Source: Bacteroidales bacterium (GTDB lineage Bacteria; Bacteroidota; Bacteroidia; Bacteroidales; VadinHA17). From it: a DNA stretch of 64,000 bases. The position numbers and the translations under genes are program-made. Location: NCBI GenBank assembly GCA_050013475.1, contig JBEKFE010000016.1, forward strand, positions 5,257-69,256, in the 5' to 3' direction. Positions 28,046 to 63,983 of this stretch are shown here, in pieces. The notes beneath the pieces are model-generated. The model saw nothing but the letters and a program-made list of their open reading frames with translations, had not been told where the DNA came from and ran no database searches. Every line of letters starts with the position of its first letter. Position 1 is the stretch's first letter.

Positions 28046-28822
28046 ATGAATATCCGCCTGGTTATAAACACTGCTTGCAGCCTTTTGATCCTGCTTGCGG
28101 TCTCGTGCAAACATGATCCCAATAAGATCAGAAGAAGGGATCTCATACCGGTGAATGAGCTTGTTCCGTTAATGACAGACCTTTATCTTGGGGATGGCCT
28201 GCTGCAATATCCTTCTGTAAGAAACATGTTCGCTTCCAAGGATACCATCTCAAGTTATATTGATATAATTAAGCAACATGGTTATACAAAGGCACAGCTG
28301 GATAAGACTATCCAGTACTACTTTGTAAATGATCCCAAAAAGCTTCAGAAAATTTACGACCAGGTCCTTGCCAGGCTGAGTGAGATCCAGTTGCGCTTCC
28401 AGACTGACAAGTCGATGGCGCCAAAGATCACAAATAACCTGTGGAACCAGAAACCTGCAATTCTGGTTCCGGAAGATGGTACCGACAATTCCGTCTATTT
28501 CAATGTACCAATTAAGGATACCGGTTATTTCTCGCTTACTCTCTCTGTACTTATTTTCAAGAATGATCAGAGCGTCGACCCCAGGGTCACAGTTTACTTC
28601 TGGAAATCAGACAGTGCAGGTAACATGCTGAAGAAAATGTGGGGAAAAGCTGACCTGTCAAAGGATGGCATAATGCATAATTATAGTGTTACAGGCAGGC
28701 TCTCTGATACTTCATACAGACATATCAGCGGTTATCTCCTCGATAGCAATCCGCTGAAAGGACGGTGGCAAAAACATGCAAAAATTGTAAACATCCTGCT
28801 TATAAAGGGAGTACCTGAATGA
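28046..28822 (+). CDS. lipoprotein, DUF4296-like
   Basis: Lipobox LLAVSC followed by LIPVNELVPLMTDLYLGDG, which resembles DUF4296. Tentative. Confidence 0.45.
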   Translation: MNIRLVINTACSLLILLAVSCKHDPNKIRRRDLIPVNELVPLMTDLYLGDGLLQYPSVRNMFASKDTISSYIDIIKQHGYTKAQLDKTIQYYFVNDPKKLQKIYDQVLARLSEIQLRFQTDKSMAPKITNNLWNQKPAILVPEDGTDNSVYFNVPIKDTGYFSLTLSVLIFKNDQSVDPRVTVYFWKSDSAGNMLKKMWGKADLSKDGIMHNYSVTGRLSDTSYRHISGYLLDSNPLKGRWQKHAKIVNILLIKGVPE

Positions 28823-29994
28823 AATATTTTTCAGCACAGTATATATTCACCAATAACGGGCCACCTCTTAAAAGAGGGATCATTACAACAGATGATGATG
28901 GTACGATTATAAATGTAGAGGATACCGGAGGGAGCCTTCCTGAAAGACATTCTGTGACATTCTTCAATGGAATTATTGTCCCGGGCTTCGTCAACTGCCA
29001 TTGCCACCTCGAGCTTTCGGTCATGAAGGACAGGATACCTAAGGGTACAGGACTTGGCGGATTTCTTGCGGAACTTAACATGACAAGAAGCACAGGTATT
29101 GATGATCCCGGACCTGCTGCTTCGGAAGGCGATAAGATGATGGCAGACGAAGGGATCGTTCTTTGTGCCGATATCAGTAACTCGTCCATCACTTTCGATA
29201 TCAAGAAAAAGAGTAGGATAAAATATATAAGTCTGCTTGAGGTATATGGAATTGATCCGGCAGGTGCAGGTAAGCGTATGTACGAAATAATGAAAGTTGC
29301 CGGAGCGGCAGAGGAGGCTCAGCTGGATTGGTTTCTTGTGCCTCACTCGGTCTATTCCGTCTCGCTTCCGCTCTTCAGGCTTCTGAAGGAGAAGAGCGCT
29401 TCAAACAGGGTAACATCCATCCATTTCATGGAATCGGAAGATGAAAAGAGCTTATTATCCGACCATTCCGGTCCGTTAATGAATGCCTATGAACTGATCC
29501 TCTCCCCTTCTGCGGTCATTATGCCTGCTGCAGACCACGTTACTGCAGTAACTGAAGAAATGACATCTTCGGGGAGCCTTATTCTTGTCCATAATACTTT
29601 TATCGGGGCAGATCAGATAAGGCAGCTGAAGAAGAGAAAAGATCTTTATTATTGCCTCTGCCCGGGTTCAAACATCTACATCTCGGATACTGTTCCGCCT
29701 CTGGATCTGATCATAAGCGAGAAATGCAGTATTGTAATCGGGACCGACAGTCTTTCATCAAACAGCCAGCTTAGCATCCTGAATGAGTTAAGGATAATCC
29801 AGGAAGAGTTTCCGGGAACTCGGCTTACGGACCTTATCGCATGGGCAACAATTAACGGCGCCAGGGCCCTGGGGGCTGAGGATATGACAGGAAGCATCGA
29901 GCCGGGCAAGAAGCCTGGACTTGTCCTTATAAAGGATGCTGATCTCACCGGGATGAAGCTTCTCCCTTCCAGTTCTTCGGTAAGACTGCTTTGA
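28819..29994 (+). CDS. amidohydrolase-superfamily metal-dependent hydrolase
   Basis: The HxH metal motif FVNCHCHLELS, a later HNTF segment and a TDS aspartate region. The start overlaps the upstream gene's stop. Confidence 0.7.
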   Translation: MKYFSAQYIFTNNGPPLKRGIITTDDDGTIINVEDTGGSLPERHSVTFFNGIIVPGFVNCHCHLELSVMKDRIPKGTGLGGFLAELNMTRSTGIDDPGPAASEGDKMMADEGIVLCADISNSSITFDIKKKSRIKYISLLEVYGIDPAGAGKRMYEIMKVAGAAEEAQLDWFLVPHSVYSVSLPLFRLLKEKSASNRVTSIHFMESEDEKSLLSDHSGPLMNAYELILSPSAVIMPAADHVTAVTEEMTSSGSLILVHNTFIGADQIRQLKKRKDLYYCLCPGSNIYISDTVPPLDLIISEKCSIVIGTDSLSSNSQLSILNELRIIQEEFPGTRLTDLIAWATINGARALGAEDMTGSIEPGKKPGLVLIKDADLTGMKLLPSSSSVRLL

Positions 29995-30042
29995 TAAAGG
30001 TATATTCAATTAATAATTAATTTTGTGCCGGGGATAAAGAAG

Positions 30043-30825
30043 ATGGGAACATTCTTATTTGATAAAATAATTTTTGGCCCTGTCAGCAGCAGAAGGCTTG
30101 GCGTATCGCTCGGTATCAATTTGCTTCCGGGAGCAAAGAAGGTATGTAATTTCAATTGCATCTACTGCGAATGCGGCTGGTCTCAGCCCGTTGAAAAGAA
30201 AGGCGGCTATCTTCCACGCCGTGAAGAGGTGTCGGAATCGCTGGCTTCAAGGCTTCAGGAGATGAAGGTGAGAAACGAATCACCCGATGTCATTACATTT
30301 GCAGGCAATGGCGAACCGACGCTTCACCCCGATTTTCCTTCCATAATCGACGATAGCATCAAGCTCAGGAATCAGTTTTTCCCCGGGGCAAAAATTGCGG
30401 TGCTTTCAAATGCCACTACCATCAACAGTCCCGCGATCAGGGATGCCCTTCTTAAGATAGACATGAACATCCTGAAACTTGATTCTGCATTTGACGAGAC
30501 AATACGGATACATAACCAGCCCAGGGCTGAGGTTAGTGCCGCTGAACTGATAGAAAACCTGAGAAAATTCAATGGAAGGCTTATTATTCAGACTCTATTC
30601 CTGAGGGGCCGGTTCAATGGAAGGATAATTGACAATACGACGCCAGAGGAGATAAATGCCTGGCTTATGGCACTCGAAAGGATAATGCCTTCATCTGTAA
30701 TGATCTATACGATATCGCGCGATACGCCAGACGAAGGATTGCTGCAGAAGGTGCCGTCTGAAGAGCTGAAGCATATCGCATCAAGAGTGGAAAAGCTGGG
30801 GATACCGACCCAGGTATCGGGTTGA
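30043..30825 (+). CDS. radical SAM protein
   Basis: CNFNCIYCECGW is a CxxxCxxC cluster. The ATG at 30043 is preferred; a GTG at 30025 is possible. Confidence 0.75.
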   Translation: MGTFLFDKIIFGPVSSRRLGVSLGINLLPGAKKVCNFNCIYCECGWSQPVEKKGGYLPRREEVSESLASRLQEMKVRNESPDVITFAGNGEPTLHPDFPSIIDDSIKLRNQFFPGAKIAVLSNATTINSPAIRDALLKIDMNILKLDSAFDETIRIHNQPRAEVSAAELIENLRKFNGRLIIQTLFLRGRFNGRIIDNTTPEEINAWLMALERIMPSSVMIYTISRDTPDEGLLQKVPSEELKHIASRVEKLGIPTQVSG

Positions 30826-31916
30826 AGTTGCAGAAGGTAAAAAACATACTTATCTGTCCTCTTGAATGGGGACTCGGTCATGCAGGCCGCATGATACCCG
30901 TTGCATCTGAACTTATTGCGGCAGGTAATAATGTACTTATCGGATCTGGCACAGAGCTTGCCGAGCTCTTCAGAAATGAGGTCGACGGACTGAAATATAT
31001 AAGCTTCCCGGGCTTCAGGATAAGATACTCGGGATGGCTGCCACAATATCTGAAAATAATCCTGAGCGCTCCATCCTTCGCATACCATATTATAAAGGAG
31101 CACAGGTTACTGAAAAAAATTATAAAGGAGTATTCCGTTGATATAGTGATCAGCGACAGCAGGCCTGGATTATGGAATAAAAATATAAAGACTGTTTTCG
31201 TATCCCATATGATGAGGGTGCCCTGTCCAAAGGCCCTCCGGTTCGCTGATGCCGCAGGCATTGCGCTTATCAGAAAACTGATCTCAAGATTTGATTACTG
31301 CTTTATCCCGGATCTCCCAGGAGAATTGAACCTCTCGGGCAACCTGTCCCATGGCGTCAAATACCAGCAAAACGTAAGATTTATCGGGATCCTGTCGAGG
31401 TTCAGCCTGGAAAACCAGGAACCGGTCAATTTAACTGCGAAGTACTATTGCACGGTTATCTTATCGGGACCGGAGCCCCAGAGAAGCATGCTCAGGAACA
31501 AGCTTGCCGGCATACTTGAAAGATCAGGAAAGCCATCAGTCATCCTTGAGGGCAAGCCAGGAGGAAGATCGTATAGTGTTACCAGAGGCAACCTGTTATT
31601 TATCGATCATCTTCCCGCAGCGGAAATGAAAAAAATTATCCTCGGGAGCCAGCATATTATAACAAGGTCGGGGTACACCACCCTCATGGAGCTTGTAAGT
31701 CTGCAAAAGAGCGCGCTTATTATTCCCACGCCAGGTCAGAGCGAACAGGAATACCTGGCATGTCTGATGGTAGAACGGGGCTGGTTCGTCTCCGCAAGTC
31801 AGGATTCTCTTGAAGATGATCTTGTCCTGCCAGGTAACCATACAGGCTTGTCTGATGGGATCACCGTTGAAAGCAGAAGGCTGCTCAGGGATGCACTTAA
31901 TGAGTTACTGGAATAA
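30822..31916 (+). CDS. glycosyltransferase (GT-B fold, MurG/GT28-like C-terminal domain)
   Basis: WGLGHAGR near the N-terminus and ITRSGYTTLMEL ... PGQSEQEYLA in the C-terminal half. The TTG start overlaps the upstream stop. Confidence 0.65.
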   Translation: MKLQKVKNILICPLEWGLGHAGRMIPVASELIAAGNNVLIGSGTELAELFRNEVDGLKYISFPGFRIRYSGWLPQYLKIILSAPSFAYHIIKEHRLLKKIIKEYSVDIVISDSRPGLWNKNIKTVFVSHMMRVPCPKALRFADAAGIALIRKLISRFDYCFIPDLPGELNLSGNLSHGVKYQQNVRFIGILSRFSLENQEPVNLTAKYYCTVILSGPEPQRSMLRNKLAGILERSGKPSVILEGKPGGRSYSVTRGNLLFIDHLPAAEMKKIILGSQHIITRSGYTTLMELVSLQKSALIIPTPGQSEQEYLACLMVERGWFVSASQDSLEDDLVLPGNHTGLSDGITVESRRLLRDALNELLE

Positions 31917-56323: not shown

Positions 56324-56465
56324 TTTAAAAATTTTTGCAAAGTTAGCAAAATCTTAACCCATCCTATGTCTTCACAATTCTATTAATATCAAACTATTCA
56401 TAATACTTTGGGGATTTATATTAAGACTTCTAATCAATTGAATTTTGAATTGACTTTTAAGATAT

Positions 56466-56504
56466 AACCACGGAGTGACACTGAGTTATCACGGAGTAAC
56501 ACTG
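56466..56504. repeat. left arm of the gene-carrying word-stutter element
   Basis: aaccacggagtgacactgagttatcacggagtaacactg lies 75 nt upstream of the GxxExxY gene. Confidence 0.8.
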
Positions 56505-56579
56505 TTTTGAGATTAATAAAAATTTGGCATTTGTGTTAGAAATATTTTATCTTTATTATGTCTCGCTAAAACTATTTTT

Positions 56580-56957
56580 ATGCAGCTATTACATCAGGAA
56601 CTTACCAGCTCCATCTTAAAATGTGCTTATAAAGTACATAGTGCCCTTGGACCTGGTTTATTGGAATCTGCTTATGAAGAATGTCTTCATTATGAACTTG
56701 ATAAAATTGGTCTTTTTGTAATTAAACAAAAACCCATGCCGCTGGTTTATGAAGACAAAAAACTTGATCTTGGCTACAGAATTGATCTCTTTGTTGAAGG
56801 CAAAGTCATAATTGAGATAAAATCAGTAGAATCATTTAACCCTGTTCATATGGCTCAATTATTGACTTATTTAAAATTATCGGGCTGCAGAGTTGGCTTT
56901 CTAATTAATTTCAATGTACTTTCCTTGAAAGAAGGTATTCAAAGAGTAATAGTTTAG
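56580..56957 (+). CDS. GxxExxY protein (PD-(D/E)XK nuclease superfamily)
   Basis: 125 aa with the motif GLLESAY, then DLFVEGKVIIEIK (D..E.K nuclease-like core). This is the typical length and layout of the GxxExxY family. Confidence 0.85.
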   Translation: MQLLHQELTSSILKCAYKVHSALGPGLLESAYEECLHYELDKIGLFVIKQKPMPLVYEDKKLDLGYRIDLFVEGKVIIEIKSVESFNPVHMAQLLTYLKLSGCRVGFLINFNVLSLKEGIQRVIV

Positions 56958-56987
56958 AATTTATGCAGTAAATATTTATTAAATATT

Positions 56988-57150
56988 CCACTCCGTGTTT
57001 TACTCTTTGAGACTCCGTGGTTAAAACTTTTTCCCGGAATGACGGAGGTTGAAATGTCCCACTCCGTGTAACTCCGTGTTTTACTCCCCCGATAGATCGG
57101 GGCAAGCTGTGAGACTCCGTGGTTAAAACTTTTTCCCAGAATTACAGTGG
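56988..57150. repeat. duplicated right arms of the gene-carrying word-stutter element
   Basis: The first right arm is cactccgtgttttactctttgagactccgtggttaaaac (56988-57025). The second is the longer cccactccgtgtaactccgtgttttactcccccgatagatcggggcaagctgtgagactccgtggttaaaac (57058-57127). Each is followed by tttttccc(g/a)gaat. Confidence 0.8.
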
Positions 57151-57248: not shown

Positions 57249-57256
57249 TAAATTTG
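57249..57256 (+). promoter_or_regulatory. possible Bacteroidetes -7 promoter box
   Basis: TAAATTTG matches TAnnTTTG exactly and lies 22 nt upstream of the ATG at 57278. I saw no clear -33 TTTG, so support is weak. Confidence 0.3.
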
Positions 57257-57277
57257 ATATATAAACAGTTTGGAAAG

Positions 57278-57559
57278 ATGGATCTAAGATCGGTGCCCTC
57301 ACGCTCCCCTTCGGTTGTGACCCGGAAAACAGGAAATGAATATGTGCTTGTGCCTGTTACAGATAACATTGCCGATATGGACAGTGTTTATACTCTGAAC
57401 GAGACCGGTGCCTATATCTGGGAACAGATCGATGGCAACAGGACCATTTCCGATATCATTGCCCTTCTCACAGGTGAATTCGATATCGATAAAAAAACCG
57501 CTTCTGCCGACCTGCTTGACTTTTTAAGTAAAATGAGTGCCTATCTGATCATTAAATAA
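57278..57559 (+). CDS. PqqD-family peptide chaperone (RiPP recognition element-like)
   Basis: 93 aa. VVTRKTGNEYVLVPV...YTLNETGAYIWEQIDGNRTISDIIALLTGEFDID...ASADLLDFLSKM is the classic PqqD layout. The ATG at 57278 is preferred over the TTG at 57254. Confidence 0.8.
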   Translation: MDLRSVPSRSPSVVTRKTGNEYVLVPVTDNIADMDSVYTLNETGAYIWEQIDGNRTISDIIALLTGEFDIDKKTASADLLDFLSKMSAYLIIK

Positions 57560-57570
57560 GAGGAAGTATT

Positions 57571-57625
57571 GTCTTGCAGTCCTGCAGTCCTGCAGTCTTG
57601 CAGTCGTACCACTCCTTCGTACCGG
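57571..57625. repeat. 8-nt stutter repeat between the PqqD and kinase genes
   Basis: The units are gtcttgca gtcctgca gtcctgca gtcttgca gtcgtacc actccttc gtaccgg. Confidence 0.7.
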
Positions 57626-57637
57626 TAACTATTTATA

Positions 57638-58525
57638 ATGAAAAGCTATAATCTGAATATTGCTGATTATAAAATTAAGATCGAATCTGCGGAAAAAGGG
57701 TTGGAACTGGTGCCTTCAGAAAGATTCGCCGGATATATCTGTTCAGATGAAAATTCGGATATTTCAATAAAGGTCCATCCGGAAGCTTACCGGCTACCCG
57801 ATGGCACCGAAAGGGTGTTTCATGCACCGCTCGTTGAAGAGATCGACGGGTCATATATTCAGAAGGATGATAACTTCTGGAGCATTTACAGGCATCGCTC
57901 CGACCTGTTTATAAAAACCATATTTCCCTATGCGGGGTCAGAAAAGAAAGCTGTTCTGAAATTCTCCCTCACCAGCCGGGAATGGGACCTTTATTTTGAG
58001 GGAGCCGGATCCTCTACCGATCCGCTTGATTACCCGCTCGACGGACTTATCCTCTATTATCTTGCCGCAATGAACGGTGATATAATGGTCCATGCCTCCG
58101 GGGTGAACTATGCCGGGAAGGGATACATTTTTTCAGGGGTATCCGGCAAAGGAAAAACCACGATGGCAGGCTTATGGAACAAGACAGGCAGCATGGTCAT
58201 CCACGACGACAGGCTGATAATCAGGAATATTGACGGAAAATACTTCATGTATAACACTCCCGTCTATAAAAATGACCTGCCCTCACAGTCGGAGATATCC
58301 AGGATATTCCTGATAAATCACGGAAAGGAGAACAGGCTTGTTCCCTTAAAGGGCGCCCGGTCAGTAAGCCTTTTTCTGGCCAACTGCATACAGCATAACT
58401 GGAACAGTGAGCTCATTGCCAGGCTTATTGGTTCTGTATCAGTAATGTGCTCCACGCTTCCTGTCGCACAGCTTTTCTTCAAACCCGACAAAAGCATAAT
58501 TGATTTTATCCTCTATTATGAATAG
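57638..58525 (+). CDS. HPr kinase/phosphorylase-like (HprK-related) serine kinase
   Basis: The C-terminal half has MVHASGVNYAGKGYIFSGVSGKGKTTMAGLW, the HprK C-terminal-domain P-loop context. 295 aa. Confidence 0.75.
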   Translation: MKSYNLNIADYKIKIESAEKGLELVPSERFAGYICSDENSDISIKVHPEAYRLPDGTERVFHAPLVEEIDGSYIQKDDNFWSIYRHRSDLFIKTIFPYAGSEKKAVLKFSLTSREWDLYFEGAGSSTDPLDYPLDGLILYYLAAMNGDIMVHASGVNYAGKGYIFSGVSGKGKTTMAGLWNKTGSMVIHDDRLIIRNIDGKYFMYNTPVYKNDLPSQSEISRIFLINHGKENRLVPLKGARSVSLFLANCIQHNWNSELIARLIGSVSVMCSTLPVAQLFFKPDKSIIDFILYYE

Positions 58526-58970
58526 TAAAAAGAATTTCCGCGATTCGGTAAAGAATATCGGTACCTCCCTGCTTTCGGAAGGGACAACCATCAGGATAAA
58601 GGCTCACGGGTACAGCATGTATCCGTCAATCAAGCCCGGTTCTCTCATAATTATTGAACCGCTAAGGGTAAAGGGCGATCCGGTAAGGGGAGAGATCGTT
58701 GCAATTAAAAGGGAGAACGGACTTGTTGTGCACCGGATAGTTAAGATCCTCATCAAAAACGGGGTAAGATATTACGTGGCCCGCGGCGACAGCAATGCCT
58801 ATGCCGATCATCCTGTACCTGCTTCCTCCATCGCAGGAAGAGTGATAAAAGCAGAGGCAACAGGTGAAAATCCTCATCCGGCAGATATTGCAATAAATAA
58901 GAGACCAAGTTATTTCCTTAACAGGATAAGAGTTATTTTTATAATGATCCGTAAGAAGCTTGGTTCATAA
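58518..58970 (+). CDS. S24/S26-family Ser-Lys peptidase (signal-peptidase-I-like)
   Basis: The catalytic serine motif HGYSMYPSI, then GEIVAI, VHRIVK (lysine region) and GDSN. The ATG at 58518 overlaps the kinase stop by 8 nt. Confidence 0.7.
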   Translation: MNSKKNFRDSVKNIGTSLLSEGTTIRIKAHGYSMYPSIKPGSLIIIEPLRVKGDPVRGEIVAIKRENGLVVHRIVKILIKNGVRYYVARGDSNAYADHPVPASSIAGRVIKAEATGENPHPADIAINKRPSYFLNRIRVIFIMIRKKLGS

Positions 58971-60768
58971 AACCCGCGAATTGAAGAAAGTTAAGCTATT
59001 CACAAAATCGCTGAGGCTCGTATGGGTAAGCGCTCCTCTCTGGGCTACCGTCAATGTGGTGGTCTCAGTGGTCAGAAGCATCCTGCCGCTTGCCCTGGTC
59101 TTTCTTGTCAAATATCTTATTGATGCAATTACATCAAGAGCCGGCAGCGCCAATGATCATTCTTTAATGCCTGTATTATACCTTATTATCGCTGTTGTGG
59201 CCGTATTTTTCCTGGATGAGATCTCTTTCGAGTTTTCAAATTTTGTCAGGAAAAAGCAGTCCCTCAGGCTCGAATCATACATGTACGACCTTCTTCATAA
59301 AAAATCGGTGAGCCTCGATCTTATAAATTTTGAAAATCCCGCCTATTTTGATATTCTTTCCAGGGCCTCCAGGGAGGCTACCTGGCGTCCGGGCAATATC
59401 CTGAATAATCTTGTTTCTGTCTTCAGGGGACTGCTGTCGCTGCTGCTGATGTCGGGCCTGCTGGCATCACTAAGCTGGTGGGTCGTGCTGCTTCTTCTGG
59501 TTGTAAATATCCCGGGGGTATGGCTGAGGCTCTGGTTTGCGGATATCCTTTATAACTTCCAGCGCGATCAGACTCCGGAAGCAAGAAGATCGGCCTATTA
59601 TAACTGGATACTTACAGGCGACAGGCCATCGAGGGAACTGAGGCTGTTCGGCCTGGGAAATTATTTCATTTCACTGTTCAGGGAATCATTCACAAGGCAG
59701 AAGGAGGAGGAGATCAATATCCTGAGAAAAAGGACAATTATCGAGACCATATCCACCCTGTTCAAAGCTGCAGCCCTGTTTATTGTTCTGTACGAGGTGG
59801 CGGTCAGAACAATTTCCGGCCGTCTGTCGCTCGGACAGATGGCAATGTTCATCCTGGCGTTCCGCCAGGGGATGATGTATATCAGGGAGACATTCAGCTC
59901 CCTTGCCTCACTGTATGAAGACAGCCTTTTCATTGGCGATACCTTTGAATTCCTGGATCTGAAGGAGAATATCACCGCCCTGCAGCCTGAAGTAAAGCCA
60001 GTTCCGCTCATATCAGAGATCGAAGCAGGAGGAGTTACCTTTACCTATCCTGGCAACAGCAGGCCTGCGATCAGTAATGTATCCTTTAAAATAAGGAAGG
60101 GAGAAGTTGTCGCACTTGTCGGTAACAACGGTTCGGGAAAGAGCACGCTTGTGAGGCTGCTTTGCAGGCTTTATGACCCCGATAGCGGACAGATACTTTA
60201 CGACGGGGCAGATATCCGGAATATGGATCCCGGGACTTACCAGAAAATGTTCTCTGTGGTTTTCCAGGATTTCATGCTTTACAACCTCAGCGCCGGTGAG
60301 AATATCAGACTTGGGAATATTGACGGTCAGGGATCTCAGGAGAAGATCGAATCTTCAGCTTCCATAACCGGGGTTGATGATCTTGTCAGGAGTCTTCCCA
60401 GGGGTTATGATACCGTTATAGGCAATCTGTTCGACGACAGCCGTGAACTAAGCTGGGGCGAATGGCAGAAGATTGCAATTTCCAGGGCGTTGTACCGTGA
60501 TGCTCCCGTGCTCATCCTCGATGAACCTTCTAGTGCGCTCGACGCCGGCACTGAATATGAGATCTTCAGCCGCTTCAGGGAGATCGTAAGAGGAAGGACA
60601 GCGATACTTATAAGCCACAGGTTCACAAATGTGAAGCTGGCCGACCTCATCATAGTGCTCGATAACGGGGTTGCAGCGGAGAGCGGATCGCACGATGAGC
60701 TTATGAAGAGACAGGGTATCTATTATAATATGTACCTGAAACAAAGCAGCCGCTTCGGTGATGAGTAA
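58960..60768 (+). CDS. ABC exporter, fused permease/ATPase
   Basis: A 6-TM exporter domain, then Walker A GNNGSGKST, signature LSWGEWQKIAISRA and Walker B LILDEPSSALD. There is no N-terminal C39 peptidase domain. The start is non-ATG (TTG at 58960 or 58981). Confidence 0.85.
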   Translation: MVHKTRELKKVKLFTKSLRLVWVSAPLWATVNVVVSVVRSILPLALVFLVKYLIDAITSRAGSANDHSLMPVLYLIIAVVAVFFLDEISFEFSNFVRKKQSLRLESYMYDLLHKKSVSLDLINFENPAYFDILSRASREATWRPGNILNNLVSVFRGLLSLLLMSGLLASLSWWVVLLLLVVNIPGVWLRLWFADILYNFQRDQTPEARRSAYYNWILTGDRPSRELRLFGLGNYFISLFRESFTRQKEEEINILRKRTIIETISTLFKAAALFIVLYEVAVRTISGRLSLGQMAMFILAFRQGMMYIRETFSSLASLYEDSLFIGDTFEFLDLKENITALQPEVKPVPLISEIEAGGVTFTYPGNSRPAISNVSFKIRKGEVVALVGNNGSGKSTLVRLLCRLYDPDSGQILYDGADIRNMDPGTYQKMFSVVFQDFMLYNLSAGENIRLGNIDGQGSQEKIESSASITGVDDLVRSLPRGYDTVIGNLFDDSRELSWGEWQKIAISRALYRDAPVLILDEPSSALDAGTEYEIFSRFREIVRGRTAILISHRFTNVKLADLIIVLDNGVAAESGSHDELMKRQGIYYNMYLKQSSRFGDE

Positions 60769-61933
60769 GGAGCTGGAAATAAAGGATGATGAGATATTGC
60801 TGCTCGGGCTTTGCAGACCTTTTTTTACAGCCGAACAGGCTGAAAAGCTGAAAGGGCTTGCAGCCAGGATAAGCGACTGGGATCATTTTGTTTCGCTGGC
60901 CAATGAGCACGGAGTAGCATCACTTGTATATAATAACCTGCTCGGGCTTTCACTTCTTTCATATCTTCCCCCGGCATCTGCAGAATTTCTTCAGAAAACA
61001 CGGATGCTGAATATAAGCCGTAATGCTTTTCATATTACGGCTATCGAGGAGGTCCTTTCGATCCTTAACAGGGAAGGCATAAAGGTGGTACTGCTTAAAG
61101 GGCTGGCGCTTGAGTTCTCTGTATATGGAAATTCCAGTCTGAGACAGATGACCGATGTTGATATCCTTATAGATCGCCGTGATTTCATAAGGGCCAGGCA
61201 TGTTATGATGGAAAACGGGTATGATTCAATGCCTGTCAAGTCGGGTCTTCACAAGCCGATCATTGCCTTCACCGGTAAGCATCTGCCCACGATGTTGAAG
61301 AACGGGGCATCAATCGATATTCACATAGAGCTTTTCCCCGGAAAGAGGAACAGGCTTACAGATATGCTGTTTGATTCATCGGCTGAAATAAAGGTTGACA
61401 GGGAGAGGGCCTTTATCCCGTCGCCGCAGCTCTTTTTCCTTTTTCTTGTAAAGCATCTTTACCAGCACGAGATAAATAATGAATCACAGCTGCGGTTATA
61501 CTCCGATCTTGTATTTCTCCTCGGGATGCACAGGGATGAAATAATAAACTGGGACCTGCTGGCCAGGGCTTCGGAGGCGGGCATCACTAAGATCCTTGCG
61601 TGGAAGCTTGAGCTCCTTCGCGATCTGTGGGGGATACAGTTTCCGCAGTGGATCGATGATTTTATTGATAAGTGGTTCATCCCGGATTCAATAAACAAAT
61701 TCGTCTTTTTCCTCAAGAGTCCCAAGAATAACAAGCCGGATCGGCCGGGTTATGTCTACAGGCAGATCATCAGGGATATTCCGGGCATCCACCGGAAGCT
61801 GCTTTTCATTGCCGGTGATATTTTTCCTTCTGTCAGGTTTATGAAGGAGCGGTATGGGTGTAAAACCAATTGGAAAGCTGTTCTTTATTATCCAGTCAGG
61901 CTGGGGAAGCTGATCCTGCTGGTTTCAAGATAG
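60758..61933 (+). CDS. nucleotidyltransferase-fold protein (uncharacterised NTP_transf_5-like family)
   Basis: LKGLALEFSVYGNSSLRQMTDVDILI is the G[SN]-x(n)-DxD pol-beta-type NTase motif. 391 aa. It overlaps the ABC gene by 11 nt. Confidence 0.7.
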   Translation: MMSKELEIKDDEILLLGLCRPFFTAEQAEKLKGLAARISDWDHFVSLANEHGVASLVYNNLLGLSLLSYLPPASAEFLQKTRMLNISRNAFHITAIEEVLSILNREGIKVVLLKGLALEFSVYGNSSLRQMTDVDILIDRRDFIRARHVMMENGYDSMPVKSGLHKPIIAFTGKHLPTMLKNGASIDIHIELFPGKRNRLTDMLFDSSAEIKVDRERAFIPSPQLFFLFLVKHLYQHEINNESQLRLYSDLVFLLGMHRDEIINWDLLARASEAGITKILAWKLELLRDLWGIQFPQWIDDFIDKWFIPDSINKFVFFLKSPKNNKPDRPGYVYRQIIRDIPGIHRKLLFIAGDIFPSVRFMKERYGCKTNWKAVLYYPVRLGKLILLVSR

Positions 61934-62042
61934 TCTGAGGTCTGGGGGTCTGGGGGTCTGGGGGTCTGGAGTCTTAGGTCCTGGGGTCATAAAGTGTTTC
62001 TCTGCGCTCCCTGCGTAAAAATCTCTGAGAACTCTGCGGTTA
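61934..62042. repeat. 7-8-nt stutter repeat plus a CGCAGAG-type right arm
   Basis: The stutter is tctgagg tctggggg tctggggg tctggggg tctggag tcttagg tcctgggg (61934-61986). It is followed by ctctgcgctccctgcgtaaaaatctctgagaactctgcggtta (62000-62042). Confidence 0.7.
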
Positions 62043-62172: not shown

Positions 62173-62376
62173 ATGAACAAGTTTGTAAAAGCCTGTATCA
62201 AGGAGAGAATTATCAGGCTTGTTAGGCTAAAGTCTACCGGAACTCCGTCGCAGCTGGCGCAGAAATTTGAAATAAGTGAACGGAGTGTCAAAAGGATCAT
62301 CAGGGAGCTTAAAGAAGACGGGATGGTCATCAGGTTTGATCACAACTGCATTTCGTATATAGATTCAGACGGCTGA
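62173..62376 (+). CDS. small helix-turn-helix protein
   Basis: 67 aa. STGTPSQLAQKFEISERSVKRIIRELKEDG is a typical HTH (DeoR/HTH_11-like). Confidence 0.6.
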   Translation: MNKFVKACIKERIIRLVRLKSTGTPSQLAQKFEISERSVKRIIRELKEDGMVIRFDHNCISYIDSDG

Positions 62377-62635
62377 AAACATGTTGTATAACATATACCT
62401 CGTTCACTTTTGTGTCCCCGGTGCTTTTTAATATTGTCATATCTGCAATACAATTTAGAAAATGTTTAGGAATGGGAGTATCATTATGTTCCATCAAAGG
62501 GAGAGCCTCACAAATCAGGTTTGTTTCTTCACTCGTTATTCAGGTTTTGGTAATCAGTCTATTAGTTCTCGCTGCATTTCGTGCTGATTATCTTGTTCGT
62601 TAAGAACAGTTGGTCGTTCTGACCAGAGGCCCCAT

Positions 62636-62673
62636 CCCGGAAGTCTAGCCAGTCTTCCGGGATTCTCTTTTTT
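62636..62673 (+). terminator. intrinsic terminator
   Basis: The stem is cccggaag (62636-62643) pairing with cttccggg (62654-62661), plus 2 more bp. It is followed by attctcttttttg. Confidence 0.7.
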
Positions 62674-62957
62674 GCGCTATTAGGTTTGTGGTACGCATTG
62701 TGAGGGGGGCAAAATCTTTTCAGGCAGGAACAATATAAATGAGATTCCTTGACATATTGCGCTGGGAACCGTTTGGAAAAATTCTATTAAGACCCCGGTC
62801 CGGCGCGGGAAACACTCATTCATCCATTTACTATGATTGATGCAACCCCCGGAGGGGGTTGCAAATATTTCGCCATTGAGGGGTGGGCTCATTACAATGA
62901 CTGAATAAATAAAAGACATTGTGCCTTTTAAAGTACCAATACTAATAAGTTGCTAAA

Positions 62958-63248
62958 GTCATTACGAGCCCGACTACTCCTTAAGCCGTACCATTCTACA
63001 AATAGCATTAGTCGGGAGAAGCAATCGAATTCAGCGGATCGGGAAGCTGTAGATGTAGTCACCGAAGCCCCGGAGGGGCGAGGCAGCCCCGCGAGGGGCT
63101 GAATATCAATAACCCCCGGCGAAACCGGGGGTGAACCTGCACATTATAATTGTGAGCCCCGAAGGGGTGAGACTTCATTCAAACATCACTTAAGTATCCT
63201 GAATCCGATTGCTTCGTCGCCCTGTTGAGCAGGGCGCCTCGCAATGAC
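62958..63248. repeat. 290-nt nested imperfect palindrome enclosing a C-run/G-run mini-hairpin cluster
   Basis: Outer arms are gtcattacgag (62958-62968) and ctcgcaatgac (63238-63248). Inner arms are gaagcaatcgaattcag (63018-63034) and ctgaatccgattgcttc (63199-63215). Central hairpins are gccccggaggggc, gccccgcgaggggc, cccccggcgaaaccggggg and gccccgaagggg. Confidence 0.7.
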
Positions 63249-63290
63249 CTGTTTGAAATCAAATTTTGTATTAAATTGTGCTCAATATTT

Positions 63291-63983
63291 TTAAAAATAA
63301 CTTGTTAAAGTTTCAAGCATTGATCCATTATTGTCACAATCCATTATAATTTTCCCTTTATTAAGTACAATTATCCTTTTGCATATTTCATTAACATGGT
63401 TCAAATTATGACTTGAAACTAGGATTGTTGTACCATCATTTCTATTTATATCTATTAACATTTTTTTAAAAACAATTTGAGCTGATGGATCAAGGTGATT
63501 GAATGGTTCATCTAGAACAAGAACTTTGGGATTAAAAAAAAAAGCTGAAAAAATTCCAATTTTTTGCTTATTCCCATCCGAGTATTCTCTAATATATTTA
63601 CCATTTTGATTAAGTATCTCATTATTAAAAAAATGAATAAATGATTTTAATTTTTCTTCAATTTGTTCATTCGTAATATGATATATCTTCCCAAGGAAAG
63701 AAAAAAACTCCTCAGGTGTTAAAAAATCAATTAGAAAACTTTCATCTAAATACGAACCCGTAAAACTCTTCCACTTCTCGGAGTTTGAAACTGAAATATT
63801 ATTCAGGCAAATGCAACCACTATCTGCTCTTATCAAATCTAAAATTAATCTGAAAAATGTCGTCTTTCCAGCTCCATTATTTCCCACAATTCCCAAGAAT
63901 TCACCTTTATTGATCATAAGATTACCAATATCAAGTACATTTTTACCAAGATAGGTCTTCTTAATATTTTCAACTTTTATCAT
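63291..63983 (-). CDS. ABC transporter ATP-binding protein (ABC-2/bacitracin-type), AT-rich gene
   Basis: Walker A GNNGAGKTT, Walker B VLVLDEPFNHLD, H-loop SSHN and an atypical signature YSDGNKQKIG. 230 aa. Confidence 0.85.
   Translation of the reverse strand: MIKVENIKKTYLGKNVLDIGNLMINKGEFLGIVGNNGAGKTTFFRLILDLIRADSGCICLNNISVSNSEKWKSFTGSYLDESFLIDFLTPEEFFSFLGKIYHITNEQIEEKLKSFIHFFNNEILNQNGKYIREYSDGNKQKIGIFSAFFFNPKVLVLDEPFNHLDPSAQIVFKKMLIDINRNDGTTILVSSHNLNHVNEICKRIIVLNKGKIIMDCDNNGSMLETLTSYF

Follow-up and report, generated by a model that had tools for sequence, protein, structure and literature searches.

What is made by a bacterial operon that encodes a PqqD-family protein, an HPr-kinase-like protein, a small serine peptidase, an ATP-binding cassette (ABC) exporter and a nucleotidyltransferase? 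Such an operon lies in 64,000 nucleotides of DNA from a Bacteroidales bacterium (assembly GCA_050013475.1, contig JBEKFE010000016.1, positions 5,257 to 69,256 of the forward strand), the whole of which we call the window. It corresponds to a JGI metagenome contig of 70,160 bp (3300037993, Ga0427919_0000814). A preliminary description of the operon read it as a system for leader-dependent modification and export of a peptide that could not be assigned to a described class. Leader-dependent modification and export are supported by published experiments on homologs from the Bacillota (PMC13381572). The lack of a described class is not, as the five-enzyme set is that of the linear polyphosphorylated peptide (LPP) family of ribosomally synthesized, post-translationally modified peptides (RiPPs) (PMC13381572). 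In our view the operon probably serves an LPP-like RiPP pathway in uncultured Bacteroidales, for which it encodes the machinery of maturation and export.

The LPP family was described in the Bacillota by Popov et al. (Nat Commun 2026; PMC13381572), who discovered it by way of an archaeal-type, SipW-like signal peptidase. The described cluster is lppA-K-B-S-D-N of Paenibacillus alginolyticus DSM5050. Co-occurrence and heterologous expression gave a core set of a signal peptidase I-like peptidase, a discrete RiPP recognition element (RRE), a kinase like HprK, an uncharacterized nucleoside triphosphate transferase and a transporter like MsbA. Each cluster codes for one to three precursors with the leader YxxPxVLxHQxIxFETxxS. 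With the P. alginolyticus cluster in B. subtilis, LppK added up to four phosphates on Ser3 of the core. The leader was removed by LppS (S29, H68, D93), and the RRE LppB was required for this cleavage, while deletion of LppN in B. subtilis brought no change. A linear product that has lost its leader and bears several phosphates on one Ser has been demonstrated for this cluster alone. According to the authors LPPs are found only in Bacillota, in a patchy distribution driven by horizontal gene transfer (HGT) and often inside capsule loci, with the final product and biological role unknown when the family was described (PMC13381572).

The window operon matches the LPP set one for one by enzyme family, with an RRE, an HprK-like kinase, a SipW-like Ser-His-Asp peptidase, an MsbA-like exporter and a PF14907 transferase. 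Like the LPP clusters, it is without a macrolactam synthetase. The RRE has the residues that hold the YxxP motif, the peptidase has the SipW-like triad, and no lasso genes accompany the set. The features of the region are collected in Table 1.

Table 1. Features of the operon and of the conserved region 3' of it (window coordinates unless stated otherwise).
Feature	Position	Strand	Length	Family, match or remark
Putative promoter box TAAATTTG	57249..57256	+		Bacteroidetes-type -7 box (TAnnTTTG) 5' of the operon; read from the sequence
PqqD-type RRE, discrete (LppB equivalent)	57278..57559	+	93 aa	PF05402
HprK/PEPCK-fold P-loop kinase homolog (LppK equivalent)	57638..58525	+	295 aa	PF27840 ScmC family
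Soluble archaeal/SipW-type, signal peptidase I-like leader peptidase, predicted (LppS equivalent)	58518..58970	+	150 aa	
Fused transmembrane and nucleotide-binding domain MsbA/ABCB-like ABC exporter (LppD equivalent)	58981..60768	+	595 aa	No C39 domain
Nucleotidyltransferase (LppN/PsmN equivalent)	60761..61933	+	390 aa	PF14907 1e-45; optional member
Helix-turn-helix (HTH_11/winged-helix) protein, putative regulator	62173..62376	+	67 aa	HTH_11 6e-7; ends the conserved block
Conserved non-coding unit 3' of the HTH gene	62379..62673 (L001 14742-15036)	+		Found in 28 loci
Operator-like palindrome	62379-62396			Near-perfect 7+4+7, consensus ATATGTT-GTAT-AACATAT
Promoter-like element TTTTTAATATTG	After the 62379-62396 palindrome, before the ~230-nt stretch			
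Hairpin GGTCGTTCTGACC	62612-62624			Within the ~230-nt stretch
Intrinsic terminator	62636-62673			Loop GCTGATTAT also conserved

The first gene product passed the profile test for the PqqD family, in which it had been placed earlier, with E=1.9e-18 and 67 bits against PF05402 (cut-off 23.4). Its closest NCBIfam model was lasso_PqqD_Bac, with a score under the cut-off of that model. A profile of its orthologs matched the solved RREs PbaB1 (9x90), TbiB1 and LppB (9x8z). Residues N41, D78 and F82 of the window protein align to N33, D70 and F74 of LppB (PDB 9x8z, 9x8z_B), the residues by which Tyr and Pro in the YxxP motif of the leader are held (PMC13381572).

The second protein is recognizably an HprK/PEPCK-type P-loop kinase homolog, judging from its sequence and a structural model. 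It matched the NCBIfam models HprK_rel_B (8e-8) and ScmC (4e-5) and has a precomputed PF27840 ScmC annotation. H152, the GxSGxGKT loop and H189-D190-D191-R192 were invariant in 20 homologs, and the protein aligns to the HprK/P core of 1jb1 over the P-loop and the DD region. The AlphaFold2 model (predicted local distance difference test score 89.7) matched PEPCK and HprK/P in Foldseek with E values of 1e-4 to 5e-6. The earlier label of an HPr-kinase-like protein is upheld by the ScmC annotation, the conserved motifs and the predicted fold but not by Pfam Hpr_kinase_C, where the protein falls under the cut-off. More than 1000 close homologs of the kinase were found, all of them from uncultured Bacteroidales or Bacteroidota.

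The third protein matched PF00717 (Peptidase_S24) with 4e-7, the SipW model with 1.4e-8 and the archaeal-type signal peptidase I model TIGR02228 with 52.5 bits, just over the cut-off of 51.85. The preliminary description had taken it for a Ser-Lys peptidase of the S24/S26 kind. It is instead of the Ser-His-Asp type (endoplasmic reticulum, archaeal and SipW enzymes, S26B), and the three residues S33, H72 and D97 are invariant in 75 orthologs together with R73, G90 and D91. The spacing of this triad is identical to that of S29/H68/D93 in LppS. The motifs GxSMxP, HR and GDxN…D are common to the window peptidase and to SipW and archaeal-type signal peptidase I (TIGR02228, S26B). Unlike those enzymes, the window peptidase is without a membrane anchor, and its gene shares an operon with those of an RRE and a kinase. 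No transmembrane segment was seen across the 75 orthologs, for which the maximum 19-residue Kyte-Doolittle window was 0.48-1.47 and the N-terminus hydrophilic, so that the membrane anchor of a housekeeping type I signal peptidase is missing from all of them. We predict that the enzyme is a cytoplasmic leader peptidase and not a secretory signal peptidase. The leader-protease role that had been suggested for it agrees with published experiments on the homologous Bacillota system (PMC13381572).

The exporter is made up of ABC_membrane and ABC_tran with no peptidase domain in Pfam, as expected from the earlier statement that it has no C39 leader peptidase. Its best matches were MsbA among the NCBIfam models and ABCB1 and MsbA in the PDB. 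The product of the fifth gene is a nucleotidyltransferase, as had been proposed, by its match to PF14907 (Table 1). It is encoded in about 34 of the 57 orthologous loci with enough downstream sequence and absent from about 23; the computed number was 32, to which two loci with overlapping starts were added by hand. The gene lies on the opposite strand in Paludibacter and in two further clades.

All five genes were found co-directional where they had been reported, as plus-strand open reading frames (ORFs) from 57278 to 61933 in the ORF listing of the window. Three overlapping junctions had been claimed. Two are real, each of 8 nt: the peptidase start codon lies over the kinase stop codon at 58518-58525 (ATGAATAG), and the nucleotidyltransferase start over the ABC stop at 60761-60768 (ATGAGTAA). 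The third, at 58960-58970, is doubtful. Because the gene call and the orthologous starts align at TTG 58981, the junction between the peptidase and ABC genes is probably a 10-nt gap. The TAAATTTG box reported ahead of the operon is present at its place. Of 74 orthologous loci, 65 have a TAnnTTTG box, which in all but four of them lies at a distance of 22-29 nt upstream of the PqqD match. We infer that the box acts as a promoter.

Spacer length within the operon differs widely from one species to another, and the spacers often contain GC-rich palindromes (ccccc…ggggg), which suggests filler like repetitive extragenic palindromic (REP) elements or miniature inverted-repeat transposable elements (MITEs). 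Two tandem arrays with an 8-nt unit, perfect or nearly so, lie in the window: GTCCTGCA repeated 4.4 times at 57571-57605 between the PqqD and kinase genes and GGTCTGGG repeated 4-7 times at 61933-61988, just 3' of the nucleotidyltransferase stop codon. Upstream, a GxxExxY / PD-(D/E)XK_3 gene (56580-56957) lies between imperfect inverted repeats (AACCACGGAGT… / …ACTCCGTGGTT) and is likewise bracketed by duplicated segments of 48 nt (window 56459-57131). About 10 orthologous loci have a GxxExxY gene (42-45% identical) between PqqD and kinase instead. As it is found at differing sites, this gene behaves like a mobile cassette inserted in the operon region.

We surveyed how widely the operon is conserved by scanning one genome per species. 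Relatives were found in 193 genomes and 80 loci were fetched. In all 80 the PqqD-kinase-peptidase-ABC set lies at one fixed chromosomal site by RNase R, ispG and cysS, and the locus order is cysS - ispG - RNase R (minus strand) - PqqD - kinase - peptidase - ABC - [nucleotidyltransferase] - small HTH gene. Gaps in the gene set are mostly due to cut contig ends. The S24/S26 gene travels with the PqqD-kinase pair, as the preliminary description had asked of a neighborhood survey, with the same block in the 80 loci bar six full-length losses that are weighed below. Beyond the HTH gene the region varies between loci. A kinase profile was also searched against 1.84 billion representative proteins in a 50%-identity library, where it retrieved 209 clusters at E<1e-30 and 3162 clusters at E<1e-10. 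The conservation of sequence and position indicates vertical inheritance of the operon as a unit maintained by selection.

No asparagine-synthetase-like cyclase and no transglutaminase-like B2 protein is encoded in the operon or its flanks, and no such family recurs in the 80 loci, in agreement with the reported absence of both lasso genes. Five sister-clade loci likewise have no recurrent cyclase- or B2-like gene beside the operon. The only Asn_synthase gene seen codes for a GATase-containing protein about 10 kb upstream in Paludibacter, and the genes in between have no RiPP-related Pfam match. Nor was a Radical_SAM gene found in or beside the operon among the Pfam families of the called genes, and none goes with it in the related loci. 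It had been allowed earlier that orthologous operons might always sit beside lasso B2 and cyclase genes, this copy being a truncated one; lasso genes were found in 0 of 80 loci. The fixed site, the conserved gene set and the lack of lasso genes show that it is not a lasso cluster cut short.

The relation to the accessory genes of phosphorylated lasso peptides that had been pointed out, in a locus without the lasso core enzymes, is nonetheless real. Paeninodin-type lasso and pseudomycoidin clusters (PadeK/PsmK, PsmN) have in common with the window operon an RRE (B1), an HprK-like kinase for a precursor Ser, a PF14907 enzyme and an ABC exporter. In those clusters the kinase phosphorylates a Ser of the precursor and the PF14907 nucleotidyltransferase adds a hexose to the phosphate. 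The window operon differs from them in having neither the lasso cyclase nor the B2 cysteine protease. A serine peptidase would act on the leader instead, and the product is presumably linear. The adjacent genes for a PqqD-family protein and an HprK-like, ScmC-family protein are also known from the SynChlorMet (SCM) cassette as ScmD and ScmC (TIGR04248, TIGR04249; PF27840). Unlike that cassette, the window operon has no ScmE/ScmF radical SAM/SPASM genes, and its NCBIfam scores are 23 bits (cut-off 125) and 30 bits (cut-off 100).

Several of the enzymes are fused in relatives of the operon. Six clusters of the protein library are kinase-peptidase fusions with an S24-type peptidase and one is a PqqD-kinase fusion. 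In Paludibacter propionicigenes WB4 and in locus L093 the peptidase forms the N-terminal part of one protein with the ABC exporter. In WB4 (locus L084, CP002345.1 1351790-1372668) the order is PqqD - kinase (Palpr_1117) - 747-aa protein, of which residues 12-107 are the peptidase and residues 179-738 the exporter. These fusions indicate joint action of the fused proteins. Coupling of a leader peptidase to an ABC exporter is also known from peptidase-containing ABC transporters (PCATs), where a C39 peptidase is fused to a bacteriocin exporter. The Bacteroidota peptidase differs in being an S26B serine enzyme and not a C39 cysteine enzyme and would recognize a leader presented by an RRE in place of a double-glycine motif, and in the window the peptidase and exporter are separate genes. 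The PF14907 transferase of WB4, on the opposite strand, heads a row of polysaccharide genes (Bac_transf, Epimerase_2, two DUF354 genes and a FemAB-like gene), an arrangement that echoes the embedding of Bacillota LPP clusters in capsule loci.

What the machinery acts on was approached through small ORFs. In line with the preliminary description, no conserved ORF of precursor size was found in the operon or in its gaps. The RNase R-PqqD, PqqD-kinase and peptidase-ABC gaps range from 0 to 250 nt and more and hold palindromic REP/MITE-like filler. A conserved small ORF that travels with the PqqD-kinase pair, which had been envisaged, was not among the results of motif, tblastn and HMM searches for a precursor covering 10 kb on either side in the 80 loci. 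ORFs with a YxxP motif and conserved across these loci were also considered; all their clusters are antisense shadows of conserved genes.

Candidate precursors were found in relatives of the window clade. In three sister clades a small ORF lies between PqqD and kinase, and the three peptides are homologous. Protein and metagenome searches extended them to a family of about 100 distinct peptides with the motif K-x-Y-x-x-P-x-[IV]-x-x-[IV]-x-[IL]-D-x-x-I-S-[ML]-[VI]-M-M-[ST], followed by a variable tail rich in Pro, Gly and Asp. The motif is similar to [Y/W]xxPx[L/V/I], which is known from LPP and lasso leaders, and the sister-clade precursors have the YxxP-type leader in common with LPP. If the Tyr is set at -16 as in LppA, then by this analogy alone the invariant I-S would fall at -2/-1 and the invariant MM[ST] just inside the core. 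Most members of the family are not encoded beside the machinery. Some 14 of 20 well-flanked precursor loci, read off a table by eye, have none within 5 kb. One metagenome-assembled genome has three precursors on three contigs, of which one adjoins the operon and one other that was looked up does not. A hidden Markov model (HMM) of about 97 Bacteroidota precursors, run against the six-frame window and L001-L092, returned only the four known precursors of L086, L090, L091 and L092, and it had no match near the Paludibacter operon. By analogy with this family, we expect the precursor of the window operon to be encoded elsewhere in the genome.

Together these results are consistent with a pathway of the following kind. 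The PqqD-type recognition element would bind the YxxP-type leader of a ribosomal precursor and present it to the HprK-like kinase, which would phosphorylate a Ser or Thr near the start of the core, probably repeatedly. The soluble SipW-like Ser-His-Asp peptidase would then, in concert with the recognition element, cut off the leader. Where it is encoded, the nucleotidyltransferase may add a further group to the phosphate. The ABC exporter would carry the linear product out of the cytoplasm. That the same chemistry operates in this Bacteroidales lineage is suggested by analogy, as the enzymology comes from the Bacillota homologs.

The window system would also differ from the described LPP systems in several ways. 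LPPs are stated to be restricted to the Bacillota, whereas this operon is found in Bacteroidota. It has a fixed, vertically inherited site, in contrast to a patchy, HGT-like distribution, and is not in a capsule locus. No precursor is encoded in or near it, and the related Bacteroidota precursors are mostly unlinked. Their motif reads …IDxxIS[ML][VI]MM[ST]…, compared to …VLxHQxIxFETxxS in LPP. The nucleotidyltransferase is missing in about 40% of the orthologous loci, and the peptidase-ABC and kinase-peptidase fusions are further differences, as is the HTH gene with its companion resembling a small RNA (sRNA) at the window operon.

Some of the results weigh against an LPP-like pathway. The RRE profile scores the lasso RREs PbaB1 and TbiB1 above LppB. 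Against Pfam Hpr_kinase_C the kinase reached 15.7 bits, with a cut-off of 33.3. The sequence comparison with LPP proteins covers LppB alone, LppK, LppS, LppD and LppN being matched by description; the window genes may therefore share descent with the Bacillota LPP systems or may have come together in parallel out of lasso accessory genes. Six full-length loci among the 80 lack the peptidase or the ABC gene. Motif, tblastn and HMM searches for a precursor came back empty for the 64-kb window, for the 2.5 kb past its end and for 10 kb on either side in the 80 orthologous loci. An in-cluster precursor with a YxxPxVLxHQxIxFETxxS-type leader, which marks the LPP family, is accordingly missing from the window, L001 and the 80 loci, and the substrate of the window clade may be outside the sister-clade precursor family.

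The same genes could serve the cell envelope, with the kinase and nucleotidyltransferase building a phospho-glycosyl decoration on a protein or lipid that the MsbA-like ABC protein flips. In favor of this, capsule loci surround the LPP clusters of Bacillota, whose final product has yet to be identified (PMC13381572), Bac_transf, Epimerase_2 and DUF354 genes run in the same direction as the nucleotidyltransferase gene of Paludibacter, and the best models of the exporter are MsbA. We think this unlikely for the window operon, since neither it nor the 80 syntenic loci are flanked by polysaccharide genes (cysS-ispG-RNase R is upstream and the downstream side is variable) and since the RRE, the leader peptidase and the adjacent sister-clade precursors point to a peptide substrate. 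An envelope role is partly compatible with LPP-like maturation because the peptide itself could end up glycosylated. Resistance offers another function for a kinase and an exporter, a common pairing in that setting, and the operon behaves as a core-genome locus; it would then serve self-protection or detoxification by phosphorylating toxic peptides, foreign or self-made, and expelling them. Such a module would need neither a leader-binding RRE nor a leader peptidase, and cognate precursors are encoded beside the RRE in sister clades. The PADLOC models had no match to the RRE, kinase, peptidase or nucleotidyltransferase, with only generic ATPase- and HTH-domain matches to the ABC and HTH proteins, and we find detoxification very hard to credit.

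Equally improbable, in our judgment, is a role in tailoring or exporting the bacteriocin-like peptides with double-glycine leaders whose genes lie a few kb downstream, although a 66-aa peptide with a MKKLSIEQMIETQGG leader lies about 4 kb past the operon and such peptides are found in about 16 syntenic loci. These peptides have no YxxP motif, differ in sequence between loci and are encoded on the opposite strand in a variable region. Judged from the sequences, that region has transporter remnants of its own along with ABC-2 pairs and further genes of the kind usual in bacteriocin loci. Because the whole region is vertically inherited, their adjacency carries little weight. A paeninodin-type lasso cluster that lost its cyclase, B2 protein and precursor would explain the accessory genes held in common with such clusters and an RRE nearest to lasso RREs. 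The synteny survey contradicts it: no cyclase- or B2-like gene recurs in the 80 orthologous or five sister-clade loci, and the catalytic residues are invariant across about 75 species. The place of B2 is taken by a SipW-like peptidase dedicated to the leader, which is also the case in the functional LPP system. A decayed remnant is thus barely conceivable.

The conserved block ends with the small HTH gene, which is found 3' of the operon in 43 of 80 related loci, with or without the nucleotidyltransferase gene. Its synteny makes the HTH protein a putative partner of the operon. Following it is a conserved unit (Table 1) of about 230 nt after its palindrome and promoter-like element. Its elements are GGGTTTTAATTTAG (5', conserved), the block TCGCTGCATTT, the hairpin GGTCnnnnnGACC and the terminator. 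Pairing in the hairpin and terminator is kept by compensatory changes across loci. Two small ORFs after the HTH gene, one of 16 aa (MLYNI…) and one of 41 aa (62462-62587), were considered as precursors and rejected, having lost starts, gained stops and undergone 1-2-nt indels and frame shifts. As these ORFs decay between loci, conservation is at the level of DNA or RNA and the unit is non-coding. From its sequence the unit may be an sRNA or a regulatory transcript under control of the HTH protein. Rfam had no match in the operon or in this unit; the only one was a DUF805b motif past the window end.

Further downstream, window 62840-63250 contains a run of short GC-rich hairpins (for example cccccggaggggg, ccccggaggggc, cccccggcgaaaccggggg and cgccctgttgagcagggcg) in an AT-rich, ORF-poor stretch (GC 0.37). 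These may be REP-like elements. The double-glycine-leader peptide mentioned above (MKKLSIEQMIETQGG followed by SWRS…) is encoded at L001 18390-18590 on the minus strand, within a region (L001 18390-18892, minus; window-equivalent 66027-66529) that lies past the window end. It is directly preceded by the DUF805b RNA motif, a strong match (RF02914, 54 bits, E=1.7e-13), and by the C-terminal part of an ABC transporter that is truncated where the contig ends; after it come genes for a 138-aa membrane protein, DUF5687 and an ABC ATPase (window 63291-63983). Across the syntenic loci the double-glycine-leader peptides are encoded 5-10 kb downstream of the operon. Elsewhere, Pfam annotation of window 18.8-40 kb and of 47.6 kb to the window end revealed mostly housekeeping genes. 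Among them, at 28819-31916 and thus about 25 kb upstream of the operon, genes for an amidohydrolase, a radical SAM protein of 266 aa and a glycosyltransferase-28-like protein are tightly packed, with no evident link to the operon.

We also put forward, tentatively and as somewhat less likely than its opposite, that the operon belongs to an ancient Bacteroidota branch of LPP-type systems. The fixed operon, core to more than 190 species, would be a trans-acting hub for dispersed YxxP precursors, coupled in the window clade to the small HTH protein and the sRNA-like transcript. The products would then be physiological or signaling phosphopeptides and not accessory antibiotics.

The enzyme logic of LPP biosynthesis recurs here in an operon that is conserved and inherited vertically within a large, uncultured lineage of Bacteroidales and that has relatives across the Bacteroidota. 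The fusions of kinase with peptidase, of RRE with kinase and especially of the S26 peptidase with the ABC exporter give independent genetic support for a physically coupled complex of modification, cleavage and export. Precursors that are mostly unlinked explain why genome mining based on clusters would miss or misjudge such systems, and the precursor family provides about 100 candidate substrates. P. propionicigenes WB4, which is cultured and fully sequenced, offers in its Palpr_1117 region an experimental entry point in Gram-negative bacteria.

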